Shown here: piece after piece, positions 9,113-39,210 of the stretch
Numbering within the stretch: the first letter of the stretch is position 1
Layout: each line of letters starts with the position of its first letter
From: a phage
Strand: one strand, 5' to 3'
DNA length: 64,000 nucleotides
NCBI GenBank assembly: GCA_014437165.1
Contig: GCA_014437165.1_4090.3
Notes under the pieces: generated by a model
What the model saw: the letters and a program-made list of their open reading frames with translations, nothing else
What the model was told of the DNA's origin: nothing
Database searches by the model: none
Translations under genes and position numbers: made by a program

Positions 9113-9850
9113 TTATACTGAATTGTTAGGATAATATCTCCCATTTCCCCATATTATTCGCACAGCACCACCACCAGCAGCCGTATAAGAAGAATTATCC
9201 CATATACTACCACCACCACCATACATCTTACCAGCACCACCACTACCAGCACCACCATTATATGAACCACCGTAGCTACCACCAATACCATTAGCACCTT
9301 GAACAATGATACCAGTACCACCACCCGTACCAATGAACGAGGTATTATAGAATGTACCACCGCCCCCGCCGCCGCCAGCACCATTTTCACCAGTGATTGC
9401 ATCTCCGTTACCACCTTTACCTGTGTAGCCACCAGCACCACCACCAATGACTGCACCACCACTTACACCAGTATTGCCACCATTACCACCACCATCATTA
9501 ATAGCGTTAGCAGCTTTTCCACCTAGTCCACCAACCGTATATGCACCAGTGAAGCTAACACATAGTTTTTCAGTTCCACGATATAAACCGTTTTCAACTG
9601 GTGTAGTAGTGTTGGTATGCGTAAGAGAAACACTTAAGTACTCACCACTAGTAACCGGAATATTATTACGCCACGATAAGCCGCCGCCAGCACCACGTTG
9701 ACCACCCGGCGAAATAACACATACTGATATTTCGGTAACGCCAGCAGGAACTGTAAATTGTGTTGTTCCTATTGTCGTGATTAATTGTTCACCATGTGGC
9801 TTATATTCAATTTCATTCCCGTACTTAATCATTCTTCCAAAAGGTAACAT
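9113..9850 (-). CDS. glycine-rich (GGxGG / GxGGxG repeat) protein carrying the same N-terminal MLPFGRMIKYGN tag
   Basis: 245-aa ORF; N-terminal ~60 aa non-repetitive, rest Gly/Ser/Thr/Asn-rich; same SD/terminator module as RCC1 paralogs. Confidence 0.75.
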   Translation of the reverse strand: MLPFGRMIKYGNEIEYKPHGEQLITTIGTTQFTVPAGVTEISVCVISPGGQRGAGGGLSWRNNIPVTSGEYLSVSLTHTNTTTPVENGLYRGTEKLCVSFTGAYTVGGLGGKAANAINDGGGNGGNTGVSGGAVIGGGAGGYTGKGGNGDAITGENGAGGGGGGGTFYNTSFIGTGGGTGIIVQGANGIGGSYGGSYNGGAGSGGAGKMYGGGGSIWDNSSYTAAGGGAVRIIWGNGRYYPNNSV

Positions 9851-9897
9851 AATTCCCTCCTTTATTCATTATAATATATTTAATACAAAAAGAAAAG

Positions 9898-9916
9898 CCA
9901 GTACTGAGTACTGGCT
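9898..9916 (-). terminator. intrinsic terminator GCCAGTACTCAGTACTGGC + T-run
   Basis: hairpin + TTTTCTTTTTG on minus strand. Confidence 0.7.
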
Positions 9917-9922
9917 ATTATA

Positions 9923-11110
9923 TTATAATTGTCGGGGTGTATCTAGTACATATCTAGTTGTACTAGGACCACCATCATCATAAGTTCCGGTTGAATATAT
10001 ATTTTTCATATCAGTTAGAAATGTACGATATGAACCTCTATATATTTTTATTTTATCATACATAGAATATGTTATTTGTGTAGGCATTGGACATGCAGTA
10101 AACTTACCAACAGTTGCACTAGTACCAATACCCAATGAACCAGCATAACTACTGGCATTTAAACCAGTTGCATATACACCAGTACTCGTAATTAGTATAC
10201 TAGATTGTGGTGGGTATCCAGTATGAATTGAATACAAAGTACCGGGTGGTAACGTCGTACTGTTATTTCCTAAAACTCCATTAACAGAGCTAGATGTAGT
10301 GTTATTTCCCCATGCCCCATTATTAGCTAACCCACCGACAAGGAACTGACGTGCTCCTGTATTTGGATTTTCAACTAAAGCACTTACTGCACCAGTTGAG
10401 CATCCTGTGTATTGTAACGTTTTTGTGTATGTTGTATTTGGTTGATATAAAGTATATTGATTATATGAAGTCCATGTAGTCGCGGAACTTATACCGGATG
10501 TAACACCACCAATATATAAATTATTTTGTTTATCAAACAACAATACACAGTTATTTGTTGACTGTATTTGTGCAATATCAACATTAGGTGTGACCGCTTT
10601 TACAAATGAACCATCGGTTATTTCATAAGTAGTTCCCGTTCCATCGGCGAATTGTCTAGCACTGTTCCACCCTGTACTCCATATTGTATTATTGTCCATT
10701 AAGAAAGTAAACCACGTAGTACCTCCATACATCTGTTTAATTGAAGTACTTGAACTTTGTGTGTACAAATTTTGAATATATTGGTTATAACTTAAAAACG
10801 TAGTAGTACTAGTTGATAAACCAATATGACTACCATATCCACAGTAATAATAATTTGAGTCATTGTCTTTTACTAATAAAGTTCCTTGTGTAAGCCAGCA
10901 ATCGTTAACGTTTTCTCTAATTAATGTCCATGATTTTAATGCAGTGTTGTTTCCTCTACCGAATTTCCCAAAACTATTATTCCCACGTGCATATAGTTGA
11001 CCATCCGTATACAGAACCACAACATCTAAATCAGTTGGGATTATTTTCTTAATTTGAAGTGGTACTGGGGCAATATTCCCATAATTCATCATTCTTGCAA
11101 AAGGTAACAT
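9923..11110 (-). CDS. RCC1-like beta-propeller paralog with N-terminal MLPFARMMNYGNI tag
   Basis: 395-aa ORF; blades such as LYARGNNSFGKFGRGNN. Confidence 0.8.
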   Translation of the reverse strand: MLPFARMMNYGNIAPVPLQIKKIIPTDLDVVVLYTDGQLYARGNNSFGKFGRGNNTALKSWTLIRENVNDCWLTQGTLLVKDNDSNYYYCGYGSHIGLSTSTTTFLSYNQYIQNLYTQSSSTSIKQMYGGTTWFTFLMDNNTIWSTGWNSARQFADGTGTTYEITDGSFVKAVTPNVDIAQIQSTNNCVLLFDKQNNLYIGGVTSGISSATTWTSYNQYTLYQPNTTYTKTLQYTGCSTGAVSALVENPNTGARQFLVGGLANNGAWGNNTTSSSVNGVLGNNSTTLPPGTLYSIHTGYPPQSSILITSTGVYATGLNASSYAGSLGIGTSATVGKFTACPMPTQITYSMYDKIKIYRGSYRTFLTDMKNIYSTGTYDDGGPSTTRYVLDTPRQL

Positions 11111-11157
11111 AAATTCCTCCTTTATTCATTATACTATATTTAATACAAATAAGAAAG

Positions 11158-11176
11158 CCAGTACAGAGTACTGGCA
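11158..11176 (-). terminator. intrinsic terminator GCCAGTACTCTGTACTGGC + T-run
   Basis: hairpin + T-run on minus strand. Confidence 0.7.
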
Positions 11177-11181
11177 TTAAA

Positions 11182-12330
11182 TCATTGTATAAATGACATA
11201 TCAACTTCTGTATAACTAAGAATGTTTTGTCCAGCAATTCCCCCCATTACTACCATAGCATACCCACAATAATATAATTGCTCAGTGTCCGTAAGTATAA
11301 GTGAACCAGATGGAGTGCGTACCAAATTACACGAACTATTAAACGAAGTATACGAAGGAGTATATGAGTACTGATTAATATTATTACCAACACCTAATTG
11401 ACCAAATCCATTCGACCCAGATGCGTATAGAACTTCATCACCTTTAGCTATATGTGATGCCATGTTACTAACACAAGTATATAGAGTATAAACTCCTGAA
11501 CTCAATAATGTCGGAGTTTTGTATTGTATATCGGTAGATGAAGAAGTACCACCTGTGCCAAATTCGTTCCCGTATTGTGCACCGAACTGTTTACCACAAG
11601 CGTACAAATTATTATCCGATTTAATAAAAAATGTACTTTGATAACTTACATCAAAATCTATAACATCCGAAGCAATCATCGTCACCCCAGTAATAGAAGT
11701 TTGATTACCTGTACCTAACTGATAGTAATAGTTAAAACCACAACCCCATAAAGTATTATCTTCTTTTAGGTATATGTTACCAACTGCCTTTTTAACCGAA
11801 GTTATAGTATCTACCCTTTTGAATGTGTTAAAAGAATTAATGTTTGTACCATCACCAAATGATGATAGGTTCGAGTTATTGTTAACTCCACAACAATACA
11901 ACGTACCATCGTTTGTTATCAAATTCACCTTCATATCATTAAAACTACTCATGTATTTTATATCAGAAACATTAATACCACCTGATGTTATCCACGTAGT
12001 ACAGTCCGTCCACAAAGTTTTTGTATCAGTTACACCAGTGAATGCCTTCGTGTTACCAGTGATAAAAACTTTTCCAGTACCTTTCTCTTCATACAATTGA
12101 CAACTACTACTGTTATCTTCCAATAGAACTCGTTTAACATTCTCTGCACAAAGAATAAATTTACTCGATGCTACACCTGTACCAGTACCCCAATTCGTCG
12201 CAGAAGATGCATACAACTTATTAGTATAAGTATCATGAAGATACATAGAATCACTTGAATATATTTTAAAACGCCTATCCTTACCAGGGGCAATATTCCC
12301 ATAATTCATCATTCTTACAAAAGGTAACAT
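11182..12330 (-). CDS. RCC1-like beta-propeller paralog with N-terminal MLPFVRMMNYGNI tag
   Basis: 382-aa ORF; canonical blade YASGSNGFGQLGVGNN. Confidence 0.8.
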   Translation of the reverse strand: MLPFVRMMNYGNIAPGKDRRFKIYSSDSMYLHDTYTNKLYASSATNWGTGTGVASSKFILCAENVKRVLLEDNSSSCQLYEEKGTGKVFITGNTKAFTGVTDTKTLWTDCTTWITSGGINVSDIKYMSSFNDMKVNLITNDGTLYCCGVNNNSNLSSFGDGTNINSFNTFKRVDTITSVKKAVGNIYLKEDNTLWGCGFNYYYQLGTGNQTSITGVTMIASDVIDFDVSYQSTFFIKSDNNLYACGKQFGAQYGNEFGTGGTSSSTDIQYKTPTLLSSGVYTLYTCVSNMASHIAKGDEVLYASGSNGFGQLGVGNNINQYSYTPSYTSFNSSCNLVRTPSGSLILTDTEQLYYCGYAMVVMGGIAGQNILSYTEVDMSFIQ

Positions 12331-12375
12331 ATTTCCCTCCTTTATTCATTATACTATATTTAATACAAAAAAGAA

Positions 12376-12398
12376 TGCCAGTATCAAGTACTGGCATA
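12376..12398 (-). terminator. intrinsic terminator ATGCCAGTACTTGATACTGGCAT + T-run
   Basis: hairpin + TTCTTTTTTG on minus strand. Confidence 0.7.
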
Positions 12399-12401
12399 TA
12401 T

Positions 12402-13571
12402 TTAAACTGGTGAATCTAATACAAATTCTAAGCTACTAACGCCACCATATGTGACATTTGTCCCCGTGCTATATACAAAATTACCATCAGTTATATAAGT
12501 TCGGTTATACCCACCTGCCATCTGCGACTTACTATAATCAAACCCATCAGGCACGATTGCTTTGGTATATACCAATGCATTGGTAGATGTACCAATACCT
12601 AACATACCAGCTTCTGAAGATTGATTGTAGCCGCAACAATATATACCATCTGTTGTAGCAATAACTTGGTTATAATATGAAGTATTGTTAGCAATGCTTA
12701 CTACATCACCGGGTGGCATTAGTGAAGCAGTTTGAACCTCAAATGCTCTATAATCATTGAGAGAACCATTTGTCCCATCTGCTTGTGCACCAAATATTCT
12801 CGAACCGCCATTTGCGATGATGGTTTTTCCATTTGGATCAGTACCAATTGCCATTGCCATTGAAGTACCATTCTCCGTGTAGTACTTGATATTAATTGTA
12901 TTTCTTAAGCTGGTAGGAGCACCATAATATATAGTATATAACTTACTTCCTGAACTTGTAACTGCATTTACTCTTCCTGTATAAAATAGCCATCCTTGGT
13001 TTGTAACATAACCGTGCATTAAATTACTTGCAAACAATTTAACAGGTAATTGATTTGCTGCGGTCGGAACAGTACTTTTGACGAATTTACCAGCAATATT
13101 GTTAGTTGTTGTCCCATCACCCAACTGACCATCTGACCCCACTCCAGTACTCCATATTGTTTGGTCTGACAGTAACACACTTGTAGTCTGATAACTAACT
13201 GCTATATCTAATATTGGTAATGTTAATGTATCGAATGTTGGCATAGCAGAAGTCCATATTGATACTGCTGCCCCTTTCATACCAACAGTTGTTGAACTTC
13301 CACTGTACCATATTTCATCATTGCTTTTCTTAAGAACTATCGTCGTGGCTCCCATCCAAAAATCTTGAACACCAGAAGTACTATAAGTCCATGTAGTAAC
13401 AGTATTTTTGTGACCTAAACCCAAAAGACCATTTGCATTCTCACCACGCACATATAAATCACCACTGTTTGTTAAAACAGCAACATTATAGTTGTTAGCA
13501 AGTATTTTTTTAATATTTGGTTTAGCAGGGGCAATATTCCCATAATTCATCATTCTTCCAAAAGGTAACAT
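12402..13571 (-). CDS. RCC1-like beta-propeller paralog with N-terminal MLPFGRMMNYGNI tag
   Basis: start at 13571 (Met55 of track ORF) is the one preceded by GGAGG and giving the tag; upstream extension runs through the terminator. Confidence 0.8.
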   Translation of the reverse strand: MLPFGRMMNYGNIAPAKPNIKKILANNYNVAVLTNSGDLYVRGENANGLLGLGHKNTVTTWTYSTSGVQDFWMGATTIVLKKSNDEIWYSGSSTTVGMKGAAVSIWTSAMPTFDTLTLPILDIAVSYQTTSVLLSDQTIWSTGVGSDGQLGDGTTTNNIAGKFVKSTVPTAANQLPVKLFASNLMHGYVTNQGWLFYTGRVNAVTSSGSKLYTIYYGAPTSLRNTINIKYYTENGTSMAMAIGTDPNGKTIIANGGSRIFGAQADGTNGSLNDYRAFEVQTASLMPPGDVVSIANNTSYYNQVIATTDGIYCCGYNQSSEAGMLGIGTSTNALVYTKAIVPDGFDYSKSQMAGGYNRTYITDGNFVYSTGTNVTYGGVSSLEFVLDSPV

Positions 13572-13615
13572 ATTCCCTCCTTTATTTGTTATACTATATT
13601 TAATACAAAAAAGAA

Positions 13616-13638
13616 TGCCAGTATCAAGTACTGGCATT
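13616..13638 (-). terminator. intrinsic terminator, identical to 12376-12398
   Basis: identical hairpin + T-run. Confidence 0.7.
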
Positions 13639-13641
13639 ATG

Positions 13642-14751
13642 TTATTTTGGTAAATCAATTTTAGTAAAGACTGCAACATCCTCGATTGCACCTGGAATGG
13701 CGTAATACGATCCAGTACTATACACATCTCCATTTTTGGTTAATATCGATGTCAAACCATCACTAAAAAGAACATCCCTAATCTCACTAACTTCAACGGG
13801 TAATTGTAAATTGGTAGCACTATATATAGCACCAGTTTGAGAATTGTTTAATCCCAAACCACGGTTCGCCCCAACACCCTTCTGATATGTACTAGTAATT
13901 ACCATTTGTGTAGCAGTATTTAAGGCAGGTGAATTCGTCATAAACAACGGAGAACTATTAGGCAAAGTACTTAAAGGAACTGCACGGAATGTAGTCGTAC
14001 CTGAACTAAGAAAGTTTGGAGTTTGACCACATACGAAATATGATGTACCATTATAGTAATTTAATGCATTACCACCAATGGCTGCATCGATTACACCAGA
14101 ACTACGCAATCCCCAAGTGTTAATTTGTGTTTGGTTCCCCGTACCATGCTGCCCACTACTATTCCATCCAGAACTATATAGCTTATTATCTAATGTAAGA
14201 TACATACTATCATTCGCATTGGTCATTACTTTACGAACGTTCGTAGCACATTGAGTTAATGTGTAAATTGATGATGAACCAATACCCAAAGAACCACGAT
14301 ATCCATTATCTCCTGCACCATAGAGTACTGAATTAGTGCTAAGTACAAATATTAAACCATTTGTACATACAATATTAGCAATTTCACTTACTGGTATAGC
14401 ATTGGTAAACCAATTAGTTCTTTCAACTAATACAGTACTGTAAGAAGTAGTTGTAGAAGATGAGAACCAGTACGTTTGACCTGATGTCCATATCGTATTA
14501 TCATTTTTAATAATAACAAGTGTACGATCACCCACGAAAAAATTAGAAACATCTGCACTTACTAATATCCATGAAGATACCGTGTTGGTATTACCATTTC
14601 CAGATTCACCACCTTGATTTCTACCTATGTAATATAAATCATGTGAATCAGTCAATAAGAATTGGCCTTGGGTAGAAGCACCAACTTTAATTATTTTTTT
14701 AGGACCAGGGACAATATTTCCATACCTAATTATTCTTCCAAAAGGTAACAT
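13642..14751 (-). CDS. RCC1-like beta-propeller paralog with N-terminal MLPFGRIIRYGNI tag
   Basis: start at 14751 (Met8 of track ORF) with GGAGG SD; 8-nt gap to upstream gene (coupled). Confidence 0.8.
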   Translation of the reverse strand: MLPFGRIIRYGNIVPGPKKIIKVGASTQGQFLLTDSHDLYYIGRNQGGESGNGNTNTVSSWILVSADVSNFFVGDRTLVIIKNDNTIWTSGQTYWFSSSTTTSYSTVLVERTNWFTNAIPVSEIANIVCTNGLIFVLSTNSVLYGAGDNGYRGSLGIGSSSIYTLTQCATNVRKVMTNANDSMYLTLDNKLYSSGWNSSGQHGTGNQTQINTWGLRSSGVIDAAIGGNALNYYNGTSYFVCGQTPNFLSSGTTTFRAVPLSTLPNSSPLFMTNSPALNTATQMVITSTYQKGVGANRGLGLNNSQTGAIYSATNLQLPVEVSEIRDVLFSDGLTSILTKNGDVYSTGSYYAIPGAIEDVAVFTKIDLPK

Positions 14752-14759
14752 ATTCCCTC

Positions 14760-15962
14760 CTATTGTTGCCATAACTGCGTTGGCATTAATGTTAGTGTAG
14801 TAATACTATAAGTGCCATCTGGCAATCTACCACCATTTCCATTCCAGCCACCACATGCATATAATTTATAATCTTTAGTAATTATTATGGTTCTGCTCCA
14901 ATCTTTAGATGCCATAAGAACATTGTCATAACCACCACTTATTGCACTAAGATTAAAAATATTCCAAGTTCTAACTAATGTATTAGTTCCATTACCTTCT
15001 TGACCATATGAGTTAGCACCACTACTTCTAACATATGGTGCGTATTGTGCCATAGGTGCACCAATTGATGCATTTCCCATATTACTTGGACAAATAAAAG
15101 TACTGTACTTACTTACATCAACCGTGACCGATGTGTTCCTAATTGGTGTTAGCTGATTTACCGATGTAGTCGTACCATTACCAGCTTGTCCATTACTGTT
15201 AGCCCCGCTATAATATACAGACCCACCAGTAGTAAACCACCAAGTAACATCGTATGTAGTACTAATATGTTCGACATCACTCATCACATATTTGTTCAAA
15301 TATATCATAGAACTAGCACCACAACCACTTTCACCGAAGTTATCCTTACCACAAAACCATGCCTTTTTATTTGATTTAATATAGTGCGTTCCTTGTAATG
15401 AACATGCCATATGTGTAACTTCACCCATATTAGTCATAACTGTTAGTGTGGGTATGGAATTTTGATTACCAGACCCACATTCACCATTGGTATTTCTTCC
15501 ACACGCAATTACTCTACCATCGGTTAATAATATTCTAGTACTTTCACCTATATATACACTCTTGATCATATTAGCCATAACACCAATTTTATTAAATGCA
15601 ACAGTAACATCAGTCCATGTTGTCAAAAAACCATTAACAGGTGTTGCATCTCCATAATCAGAAAATGCACCAACCGATCCAGTGTAGTATATTTTATTAT
15701 CCAAATCAATCATCAATGAACCTTGAACACCAAGCCAAAAGGCTGCACAGTTCCTTGCAAGTACTGTAAATGACGAAACTGCTGCTGAATTCCCAAGACC
15801 AAATTGATAAAAGTTATTACTACCATAACCATATAAAGTATTAGTTGGGTTATGTAGATACATACAGTTTGTATAATGTTGTTGTAAAACATCTGAGAAC
15901 TCTACAGGTTCTGGACCTGGTGCAATATTTGCGTACTTAATCATTCTTCCAAAAGGTAACAT
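14760..15962 (-). CDS. RCC1-like beta-propeller paralog with N-terminal MLPFGRMIKYANI tag; first gene of the minus-strand array
   Basis: 400-aa ORF; SD GGAGGG upstream. Confidence 0.8.
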   Translation of the reverse strand: MLPFGRMIKYANIAPGPEPVEFSDVLQQHYTNCMYLHNPTNTLYGYGSNNFYQFGLGNSAAVSSFTVLARNCAAFWLGVQGSLMIDLDNKIYYTGSVGAFSDYGDATPVNGFLTTWTDVTVAFNKIGVMANMIKSVYIGESTRILLTDGRVIACGRNTNGECGSGNQNSIPTLTVMTNMGEVTHMACSLQGTHYIKSNKKAWFCGKDNFGESGCGASSMIYLNKYVMSDVEHISTTYDVTWWFTTGGSVYYSGANSNGQAGNGTTTSVNQLTPIRNTSVTVDVSKYSTFICPSNMGNASIGAPMAQYAPYVRSSGANSYGQEGNGTNTLVRTWNIFNLSAISGGYDNVLMASKDWSRTIIITKDYKLYACGGWNGNGGRLPDGTYSITTLTLMPTQLWQQ

Positions 15963-28700: not shown

Positions 28701-29069
28701 ATGAACGTTAATCAAGTACTGAATGAGATCGAAAGCATCATTAAACCGATGAAGCGTACTGATGCTATGTTAACACCGGAAGAATGCCGCCTTTATGAGC
28801 GTTACAGCGTCGAACAAGTCCAGGCAATGGCTAGTATCCTTCCGGTTAGTAGTACTGCTAAAGGTGGCCCAGGTTTAACCGTACAGGATAAAATCGATCT
28901 CCTTAAGCTCAATGGCTATGTAGTTGATGTCGATAAAGAAAAAGTAATGGTATATGATAGTAGTATTGAGCAAGACTATTATAACTATTGCATGATTGAA
29001 AATGATCCTATTGATTCTATCATTGAAAATATGGTTAACAAAGCATTAAAAGATTTAGATTTAGTTTGA
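28701..29069 (+). CDS. hypothetical protein (122 aa)
   Basis: ORF with ATG start. Confidence 0.55.
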   Translation: MNVNQVLNEIESIIKPMKRTDAMLTPEECRLYERYSVEQVQAMASILPVSSTAKGGPGLTVQDKIDLLKLNGYVVDVDKEKVMVYDSSIEQDYYNYCMIENDPIDSIIENMVNKALKDLDLV

Positions 29070-29143
29070 CAGTACTGTAAAAAGGCGTATAATGTTTTAC
29101 ATAGAGGGGGGAAATGGTTCTCCCCAATAACAGGAGATACAAA

Positions 29144-29517: not shown

Positions 29518-29742
29518 ATGAAAAAAGTGGTTGACTTCGGTCAGCCATTTTGTTATTATATAATCATTGAGAGATAGCTCACTAGCCCACAGGGTGCAGG
29601 AGTGTATCTATTGTATAATGTTTGAGTACTGAAAACTATTTTAAAGTATTTGATAAAAAGTACTTGCAAACTATCTCAATAAGCGTATAATGTTTTACAT
29701 CGAAAGGGGAAACGGTTTCCCCTAGTAATAAGGAAACGAATC

Positions 29743-30084: not shown

Positions 30085-30179
30085 TATAAAAAAAATAGTT
30101 TGACAATAGATTATAGTACTGTATAATAAGTTACATGAAGGGGAGAAATGATTCTCCCCACTAACAGAGAGAAAACAAA

Positions 30180-31201: not shown

Positions 31202-31532
31202 ACTATTGACAATATCATCAAGTACTGGCATAATACTTACATCAAGACGAGAACGTCACTAACCCATAGGGTGCACAAATGTAACTGTATAATATTGATC
31301 AAAAAATGATCTGATCAATACTTGATCAATTTGCGTAAAGTAGTATAATTCTATGCAGTTGGTTAGACGAAAGGTTATGATTAGTAGTGCAAGTGTATAA
31401 AAATTTTCATGGTGTATCGTTTCGCACATATGGGGATGAATATGTGGTATCATGTGGATTGGAAAAAGTAAGAACAAGTAATATTATTGTCGCATTACAG
31501 TACTATAGTATTTTTATAATGAGGTTAAAATA

Positions 31533-31790
31533 ATGGCTGTAGGATTCGCGAAAGATGGGGCCGAACAAGACGAGATTAACGCAGTGATTCAGGCCGCCGT
31601 TAACCACGCTAGAAAGCAAATTAACGCACAAATAGAATCACTGATACATTGCCTCGACTGCGGCGATATAATCCCTGAGAATCGACGCCAGGCCGTTAAG
31701 GGATGTAAGTACTGCATAACTTGCCAGGAGGATCATGATAGTACTTTTAAACGTCCCCCGCGTAATTGTTGGCATAGATCTATGAGATAA
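31533..31790 (+). CDS. DksA/TraR-family C4 zinc-finger protein
   Basis: C-x2-C-G-x2-I-P-x2-R-R-x-A…C-x2-C-Q pattern (CLDCGDIIPENRRQAVKGCKYCITCQ). Confidence 0.7.
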   Translation: MAVGFAKDGAEQDEINAVIQAAVNHARKQINAQIESLIHCLDCGDIIPENRRQAVKGCKYCITCQEDHDSTFKRPPRNCWHRSMR

Positions 31791-31853
31791 AAAGTATTGA
31801 CAGTACTGAAAGATAGTGTATAATATTTTATATCTTAACTGAGGATTGAAATC

Positions 31854-32210
31854 ATGGGAATACAACATATCACGCGTACTACTGACAATGGCGAGATCAC
31901 TGGCTATCAAGTACAGGGCAAAGTAGCACAATTGCAGTACTGGTTTGTTAAACGTGGAATCATTGCACCGGATCTTGATTATGACCGTGTAGCGTTTATT
32001 GATTCTCTTTATGTTGATCCTGATAGTCGGGGCAATGGTGAAGGTAACGAATTAATGAATGCCTTTATTGATGCCGCCGATGATTCAGATTGTATCATTT
32101 TAGAATGCGATACGGGAGAAGATAACGCCTTTAATCTTAAAGAATGGTACGAAGGTTTCGGATTCGAGGTACTGATCGATAGTGAATATCCTATCATGAT
32201 TTTATCATAG
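31854..32210 (+). CDS. probable small GNAT-fold acetyltransferase-like protein
   Basis: motif-A-like V.P..RG.G.G..L segment (YVDPDSRGNGEGNELMNAF). Confidence 0.45.
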   Translation: MGIQHITRTTDNGEITGYQVQGKVAQLQYWFVKRGIIAPDLDYDRVAFIDSLYVDPDSRGNGEGNELMNAFIDAADDSDCIILECDTGEDNAFNLKEWYEGFGFEVLIDSEYPIMILS

Positions 32211-32477: not shown

Positions 32478-32561
32478 AAAGTATTTGACAATAGATTATA
32501 GTACTGTATAATAAGTTACATGAAGGGGAGAAATGATTCTCCCCACTAAGAGGAAAGAAAA

Positions 32562-33200: not shown

Positions 33201-33514
33201 AAATAATTGAAAAAGGGATTGACTCCGGTCAGTCCCTTTGCTATTATATACGCATAGAAACAAATCAGCCCACAGGGTGCATAAATGTATCTATTGTTTG
33301 CTGGTGGCTAGTACTGAAAACTATTTTTAAAAAGTACTTGCATTGTACTTAGAATCAAGTATAATATTTTACATCAGGACGGGGAACGAAACAAGTAACC
33401 CCGTTAAGTAGTCCAGGAGTAAGACATAAGAAAACCTCCCCTGATAAAATAGTTTGACAATAGAAAGTAAACGAGTATAATACTTACATCAACCACTGAT
33501 AAGGAAACATTAAA

Positions 33515-33986: not shown

Positions 33987-34071
33987 GTATTGACAAAGTA
34001 TCTTAGTACTGTATAATAGTTTACATCAAGGGGGGAATGGTTCCCCTCCTAACAAAGAGAGAGAAATAAAA

Positions 34072-34254: not shown

Positions 34255-34343
34255 GTATTGACAAAGTATCTTAGTACTGTATAATAGTTTACATCAAGCG
34301 AGGGGAATGGTTCCCCTCCTAACTAAAAGAGAGAGAAATAAAA

Positions 34344-37106: not shown

Positions 37107-37189
37107 GTATTGACAAAGTATATCAGTACTGTATAATAGTTTACATCAAGGGGAGAATAGTTCTCCCCAATACAATAAGGAATAAAATC

Positions 37190-37597: not shown

Positions 37598-37684
37598 AAG
37601 TATTTGACAAAGTATATCAGTACTGTATAATAGTTTACATCAAGGGGAGAATAGTTCTCCCCGATACTAAAAGGAAACAAAATT

Positions 37685-39121: not shown

Positions 39122-39210
39122 AACTATTTGACAGTACTAACCAGTAATGTATAATGTTTTACATAGAGCGGGGGAATAGTTCTCCCGCCAATAGTTTGGA
39201 GTAAAACATT

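Follow-up and report, generated by a model that had tools for sequence, protein, structure and literature searches.

The window that we analyzed, a stretch of 64,000 nucleotides of phage DNA, encodes on its + strand at 31533..31790 an open reading frame of 85 codons plus stop that runs from ATG to TAA and is preceded by a GAGG ribosome-binding site (Shine-Dalgarno; 31521-31524, + strand), read from the sequence 8 nt 5' of the start codon. This coding sequence appears in the list of open reading frames of the window and is matched both by Pfam family PF01258 (zf-dskA_traR; 42.7 bits, E = 5.4e-11, profile positions 5-34 of 36) and by the PHROG 54 "DksA-like zinc-finger protein" (E = 1.8e-18). 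A sequence-only reading of the locus had quoted a peptide with a C-x2-C-x17-C-x2-C finger and an IP..RR segment and had assigned the product to the DksA/TraR family. The quoted peptide lies exactly in this ORF, with CLDCGDIIPENRRQAVKGCKYCITCQ as residues 40-65 of the 85-aa protein and C40, C43, C61, and C64 as the 4 cysteines of the finger. The family assignment likewise stands, given that the Pfam score, the check proposed with that reading, is well above the curated gathering threshold of 24.9 bits and that the predicted fold is that of YbiI, RNA polymerase (RNAP)-bound TraR, and DksA (see below).

Our search for homologues among 5.8 billion clustered proteins yielded 58, every one of which carries PF01258. 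In alignments of 25 and 58 sequences, the columns of C40, C43, C61, C64, I47, R51, R52, G57, and Q65 are invariant, so that the conservation of the 4 cysteines, which the earlier reading had made a second test of its claim, was found throughout the homologues together with that of the arginine pair; P48 and E49 are kept in at least 90% of the aligned sequences. The dN/dS ratio of the gene (Nei-Gojobori) amounts to 0.05-0.15 for pairs with unsaturated dS and to 0.10 in comparison to the orthologue of phage 121Q. The ORF at 31533..31790 is a genuine, conserved gene with a family match far beyond chance. That it might instead be a chance ORF or a decaying gene without function, as its shortness and the merely chimeric remnant found in at least one T4-like phage (EP02SG) could suggest, is effectively refuted by full-length conservation across 58 clusters, invariant functional residues, and a dN/dS of around 0.1, besides a proper ribosome-binding site and start.

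The 2-kb neighborhood of the gene shares 99% identity with Escherichia phage SHEFM2K and 90-98% with further jumbo coliphages of the genus Asteriusvirus (121Q, SP27, fEgEco12, and others; about 350 kb), and the window belongs to this genus of 121Q/PBECO4-like phages. Using tblastn, we found relatives of the 85-aa protein in 968 phage records, among them a SHEFM2K product of 100% identity that is annotated as "DksA-like zinc-finger protein", and the same annotation is given to the 121Q orthologue, gp294. Because public phage genomes already annotate the gene as DksA-like, the novelty is low, and family membership and annotation are an already known, ordinary finding. The genome papers of fEgEco12 and Sharanji do not mention the zinc-finger gene, and our search of the literature on DksA-like proteins of jumbo or T4-like phages found nothing on this phage clade or on the 85-aa protein itself. 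For YbiI, it yielded a remark from 2009 (PMC2613031) and a mention in a paper on the sigma-S regulon. The sole parts that we consider worth following are the conserved YbiI-type tip and the invariant tail of the virulent-phage clade, and the rest adds little.

Fold, relatives, and conserved ends of the protein

With the 58-sequence alignment as input, AlphaFold2 predicted a helix of residues 8-32, a zinc ribbon, a short helix of residues 49-54, and a C-terminal helix of residues 62-71 (31716..31745, + strand), at a moderate confidence that is low at both termini (pLDDT about 50). At an overall pLDDT of 73, the model thus contains the N-helix, globular zinc domain, and C-helix that make up the TraR architecture, the boundaries of which lie at residues 2-27, 28-57, and 58-73 of TraR itself (PMC6970531). 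A Foldseek search of the PDB with this model gave as top matches E. coli YbiI (2kgo), TraR bound to RNAP (6n57_M; target TM 0.67, rmsd 3.3 Å over 67 columns), and DksA bound to RNAP (7khi_M; E = 0.049, prob 0.98). The helix of residues 62-71 is predicted to be the counterpart of the C-terminal helix with which TraR contacts the Si1 insertion of the RNAP beta-lobe.

The C4 zinc finger as defined by its invariant columns spans residues 40-64 (31650..31724, + strand) and encloses the segment I47-P48-E49-x-R51-R52. HMMER alignments to the TraR chains of 5w1s and 6n57 place R51 and R52 at TraR R48 and R49, whose reported contacts are the beta' rim helices and beta' Si3, respectively (PMC9239242), and the invariance of R51 and R52 means that the arginine pair of TraR-like regulators is present. 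The finger also contains an extra, non-conserved Cys58 that aligns with TraR V55, the position of one of the two extra cysteines of lambda Orf73 (PMC9239242).

The conserved N-terminal tip consists of residues 1-12, MAVGFAKDGAEQ (31533..31568, + strand, delimited by alignment). M1, A2, and G4 are invariant among the 58 sequences and K7, D8, G9, A10, and Q12 are kept in at least 90% of them, with synonymous variation of the codons at each position. The same N-terminus is conserved across all homologues and matches that of E. coli YbiI, which supports the ATG start of the ORF. Its core reads F5-A-K-D8-G-A10, and we regard F5-x-x-D8-x-A10 as the likely counterpart of TraR D3-x-x-D6-x-A8 (D3-E-A-D6-E-A8), a register that is derived from sequence alignment. 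DksA depends for its function above all on D74 and A76 among its tip residues. The full DxxDxA motif that marks TraR-like regulators (PMC9239242) was absent in every alignment, including those with TraR and lambda-type Orf73: The second Asp and the Ala are kept, but an aromatic residue (F, W, or Y across the homologues) stands in the place of the first Asp, as it does throughout the YbiI branch. An N-terminal extension of 7 residues past the tip of TraR, suggested at first by the AlphaFold2 helix start at residue 8, was downgraded because the alignment with TraR and lambda-type Orf73, by equating F5xxD8xA10 with D3xxD6xA8, leaves an extension of only around 2 residues.

The nearest relatives of the protein are 85-86 aa long, share 62-74% identity with it, and come from other jumbo phages and from T4-like Straboviridae such as Citrobacter phage Moon, Yersinia phages MHG19 and fHe-Yen9-01, Escherichia phages JS10 and vB_EcoM_RZ, and Klebsiella T4-likes. 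They are followed by bacterial YbiI-like proteins of 88 aa with 42-52% identity. Searching PDB sequences with HMMER, we obtained E. coli YbiI as the best match (2kgo, 2.9e-12) and TraR in its RNAP complexes as the second one (5w1s and 6n57, 1.6e-5). The YbiI equivalog PRK11019 was also the top match in NCBIfam, spanning residues 1-72 at 81.7 bits and thus below its cut-off of 96. Scores fell short of the respective cut-offs as well for the TraR family of phage and conjugal plasmid C4 zinc fingers (TIGR02419; 51.3 against 59.7), for TraR (PRK13715; 30.4 bits against 108), and for DksA_like (14.2 bits against 105), which places the protein outside DksA proper. When 1.84 billion cluster representatives were scanned exhaustively with HMMER, we obtained 547 matches. 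Among these, full-length alignment with a high score was seen for a single 50%-identity cluster, and all others aligned only to residues 1-70 or so; this pattern argues for a closely knit clade of phage proteins within the YbiI branch. As judged from these sequence comparisons, the protein is closest to chromosomal YbiI and not to F-plasmid TraR, and it falls on a YbiI-like branch. Separately, relatives of the "MSGY...KMLTKML" type (P0078) were considered as P2 Orf82-like, an assignment that found no support and that we do not use, as P2 is absent from the 25 best tblastn records listed.

The uncharacterized chromosomal YbiI of E. coli (2KGO; PRK11019) is therefore the best match of the phage protein in both sequence and fold. 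The 2 proteins are of similar length (85 versus 88 aa) and have in common the N-terminal motif MAxG[FW]AxD(G/D)A, the finger with its IP..RR segment, and a conserved basic C-terminal tail that ends in S-x-(x)-R. However, their identity is only 37-39%, the phage protein has E at position 11 and H at position 25 where YbiI has V and R, the tails read RNCWHRSMR and NRRGSKDSQLR, respectively, and the phage gene lies among early genes of a phage whereas ybiI is chromosomal. With F-plasmid TraR (5W1S, 6N57) and its phage homologues, the protein shares a single N-helix, a C4 zinc ribbon, and a C-helix, the arginine pair equivalent to R48 and R49, the D-x-A part of the tip motif, and a place among early genes of a phage or mobile element. 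It differs from TraR, to which it is 26% identical, by the F in place of the first Asp of DxxDxA, by 2 more residues at the N-terminus, and by a conserved tail of 14 residues past the C-helix; moreover, it comes from strictly virulent jumbo and T4-like phages, whereas TraR and its homologues come from plasmids or temperate phages. DksA of E. coli (151 aa) has the same Pfam zinc-finger domain and, as 7khi_M, is one of the Foldseek matches, but the 85-aa protein is about half as long, with a single N-terminal helix and neither the two-helix coiled coil nor the N-terminal region of DksA. Since these parts are lacking and the DksA_like score is far below its cut-off, dependence on ppGpp is not expected.

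The C-terminal tail specific to the phage clade comprises residues 72-85, FKRPPRNCWHRSMR (31746..31787, + strand, delimited by alignments), and follows the pattern FKRxPRNCWHRSMR, of which the last 9 residues, RNCWHRSMR, are invariant in 22 loci. It is predicted to be disordered and has low pLDDT in the AlphaFold2 model. The tail codons vary freely (Ser as TCT, AGC, AGT, or TCC; Arg as CGT, AGA, CGC, or AGG) with the amino acids fixed, and the DNA downstream of the gene is unrelated between clades, so that the constraint must act on the protein; the next promoter, or any other DNA signal that overlaps the tail, is thereby ruled out as the source of this conservation. TraR has no counterpart of RNCWHRSMR in the alignments. 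Because YbiI proteins of bacteria end in another conserved tail (NRRGSKDSQLR) and a metagenomic protein (P0065) carries the intermediate NRKVWHRSMR, a conserved tail seems to be a feature of the YbiI branch, and by sequence RNCWHRSMR appears to be a divergent version of the tail of YbiI. In the T4-like Escherichia phage EP02SG, we noted at 1090-1281 a chimeric ORF of 63 aa that retains just the 27 C-terminal residues of the DksA-like protein (IYCVGCQSMHDEIFKREPRNCWHRSMR), fused to an unrelated N-terminus. An ORF of this type is probably the reason why PHROG 25948 matched residues 59-85 of our 85-aa query.

Genomic context and candidate promoters

The zinc-finger gene is embedded in an extended series of small + strand genes without an assigned function. 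Directly upstream, a GTG-started ORF of 48 aa (31387..31533, + strand; PHROG 38664, unknown function; annotated as gp293 in 121Q) ends in a TAA that shares one base with the start codon of the zinc-finger gene (TAATG), and this overlap suggests that the 2 genes are probably co-transcribed and translationally coupled. As an observation in its own right, the 48-aa ORF and its orthologue in 121Q share just 62.5% identity compared to 95-100% for the flanking genes, and the ORF so marks a local hotspot of divergence. Directly downstream follows a GNAT-family N-acetyltransferase of 118 aa (31854-32210) with its own perfect sigma-70 promoter at 31797-31824, which begins 7 nt past the stop of the zinc-finger gene.

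A consensus scan revealed 2 candidate promoters for the two-gene unit, both on the + strand: TTGACA-17-CATAAT at 31206..31234 (11/12 consensus positions), with an AGTACTG motif in the spacer that is common to the early promoters of the region, and TTGATC-16-TATAAT at 31322..31349 (10/12), 38 nt 5' of the 48-aa ORF. Upstream of the gene pair, the segment 31296-31328 of the window contains 4 GATC sites in about 33 nt, arranged within TTGATCAA / CTGATCAA / TTGATCAA palindromes that overlap the -35 element of the candidate promoter at 31322-31349.

In the whole window, perfect TTGACA-N16/17-TATAAT sites occur 17 times compared to 0.19 expected by chance, and 16 of the 17 are on the + strand. They span positions 16012-39155 and include those at 29066, 30100, 30683, 31797, 32485, 33454, and 33794 as well as 33990, 34258, 34690, 37110, 37604, and 39128. 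Most of them carry AGTACTG just before TATAAT or GTACTG just after TTGACA, and several are identical copies (30100 and 32485; 33794, 33990, and 34258; 37110 and 37604). The region around the zinc-finger gene thus looks like an early region that is transcribed by host RNAP, and Asteriusvirus phages are described as relying on the RNAP of the host together with a sigma factor of the phage and as having no RNAP of their own (PMC11895373, PMC13070987). The discriminators of the perfect promoters are AT-rich, with 0-3 G/C in 7 nt in a genome of 35% GC, which weakly points to the type of promoter expected to resist inhibition by DksA/TraR-type proteins.

Outside the genus, the zinc-finger gene does not keep its neighbors. 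In JS10, for example, it comes after mobD.3 in the tk-nrdC region, and across different phages at least 5 unrelated ORFs precede it and nothing conserved lies downstream. These differences indicate that the gene travels alone without a conserved partner, and we therefore rejected the idea of a partner protein like QisA of the VP882 TraR. A PADLOC search for defense systems gave no match for the zinc-finger gene or its 2 neighbors.

Possible action on the host RNA polymerase

Taking these lines together, we think that the protein probably binds the secondary channel of RNAP in the manner of TraR and thereby reprograms transcription in the host. According to this model, a small zinc-ribbon protein of the YbiI-like branch would be made early from sigma-70-type promoters. 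The helix at its N-terminus (about residues 8-32) would reach into the secondary channel of host RNAP and bring the conserved tip F5-x-x-D8-G9-A10 close to the active site. The globular zinc-finger domain would dock via R51 and R52 on the beta' rim helices and beta' Si3, while the C-terminal helix of residues 62-71 would contact the Si1 insertion of the beta-lobe. Such binding would be independent of ppGpp and would destabilize the short-lived open complexes at rRNA and ribosomal-protein promoters, and host RNAP could in this way be freed for the strong promoters of the phage itself. RNAP binding, the effects on promoters, and any role of the RNCWHRSMR tail are all parts that we infer.

The model draws on what has been reported for relatives of the protein. 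All 5 phage TraR homologues that were tested in previous work (lambda Orf73, P2 Orf82, VHML Orf8, VP882 Orf61, and X. bovienii Gp34) bind RNAP and reprogram host transcription, inhibit rRNA and ribosomal-protein promoters, and complement a dksA deletion, and the 2 among them with an incomplete DxxDxA motif still worked, though at lower activity (PMC9239242). For VP882 TraR, the RNAP-binding motif is needed to arrest growth of the host (bioRxiv 10.64898/2026.07.27.740977). Finally, highly expressed YbiI was reported to rescue the auxotrophy of a dksA mutant (PMC2613031, data not shown there). Together with the use of host RNAP by Asteriusvirus phages, these precedents make it a reasonable inference, drawn by analogy, that the protein is a phage modulator of host transcription. 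Should this be true, a strictly lytic jumbo phage and many T4-like phages would have one more means of turning host RNAP from ribosome synthesis without setting off a stringent response, and a mechanism whose demonstration has so far been confined to temperate phages and the F plasmid would extend to them. Against a TraR-like mechanism speak the incomplete tip motif, the unexplained invariant tail, the NCBIfam scores below cut-off, the moderate confidence of the model, and the fact that YbiI, the closest characterized relative, has no established function; besides, some members of the C4 zinc-finger family do not act like DksA (PMC9239242).

The alternative that survives best, which we nevertheless consider unlikely, is that a YbiI-type protein of this kind has a true target other than RNAP and resembles TraR merely through shared ancestry of the fold. 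It could then be a metal-dependent or stress-related factor, or it could bind another protein of host or phage via its N-terminal peptide and tail. The closest relatives are YbiI-like rather than TraR, and for YbiI a relation to iron metabolism has been suggested (PMC2613031). MAxG[FW]A and RNCWHRSMR, the 2 most conserved parts after the finger, are absent from TraR, the tail contributes an extra invariant Cys and His, and the full DxxDxA motif is missing. Yet the RR pair with which TraR docks on RNAP is invariant, the predicted fold superposes on RNAP-bound TraR, the neighborhood of the gene, different in each phage group, points to no other target, and a rescue of dksA auxotrophy was reported for YbiI (PMC2613031).

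It seems quite improbable, on the other hand, that the protein binds in the secondary channel of RNAP with an outcome unlike that of TraR, be it a general block of the active site that shuts off the host, the exclusion of GreA, GreB, or DksA, or assistance to a holoenzyme with the phage sigma factor at phage promoters. Such outcomes are suggested by the aromatic residue in place of the first Asp and the 2 additional N-terminal residues, given that S2 of TraR already lies 4.3 Å from the catalytic Mg2+ (PMC6970531), as well as by the extra conserved tail and by the sigma factor that this phage group encodes, and the activation of F-plasmid promoters by TraR is a precedent for effects on an element's own promoters (PMC9239242). 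This argument is purely structural, however, and leans on a model of low confidence at precisely the termini, and the complementation reported for YbiI (PMC2613031) suggests a DksA-like rather than a blocking activity. Rather speculatively, the clade of Asteriusvirus and several T4-like genera might form a functionally distinct YbiI-type regulator whose tail and aromatic tip give it a mode of action on RNAP or another target that TraR lacks; it might plug the active site, for example, or use its tail for a second contact. We regard this as doubtful, but it would provide a first functional handle on the uncharacterized bacterial YbiI family. The TraR-like secondary-channel binder is the reading that we prefer.

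Further features of the window

Many of the perfect promoters are followed, about 8-12 nt past the -10 element, by a conserved G+C-rich hairpin of the form GGGGAGAA-ATGA/ATAG-TTCTCCCC or variants thereof. Such sites are found at about 29102-29125, 30136-30173, 32521-32559, 34026-34050, 34296-34322, 37146-37170, 37640-37664, and 39164-39190. Starting at this distance from the -10 element, the hairpin would lie at the extreme 5' end of the predicted transcripts, and it could be an mRNA-stabilizing or regulatory 5' stem-loop. This promoter-proximal hairpin has no match in Rfam, and at gathering thresholds no RNA family was found in the whole window.

Two other hairpins with stems of 12 bp, at 29524-29551 and 33212-33239, share the design AAAG(G/T)G(A/G)TTGACT-xCGG-TCAGxCxxTTT. 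Both contain the -35-like TTGACT and lead into a -10-like TATTAT, and they look like combined terminator-promoter modules. At 4346-15962, the - strand encodes 10 consecutive ORFs of 245-443 aa, 6 of which are 376-403 aa long, in a block that is divergent from the + strand block of small genes starting near 16 kb; these 10 ORFs may be an array of paralogues.
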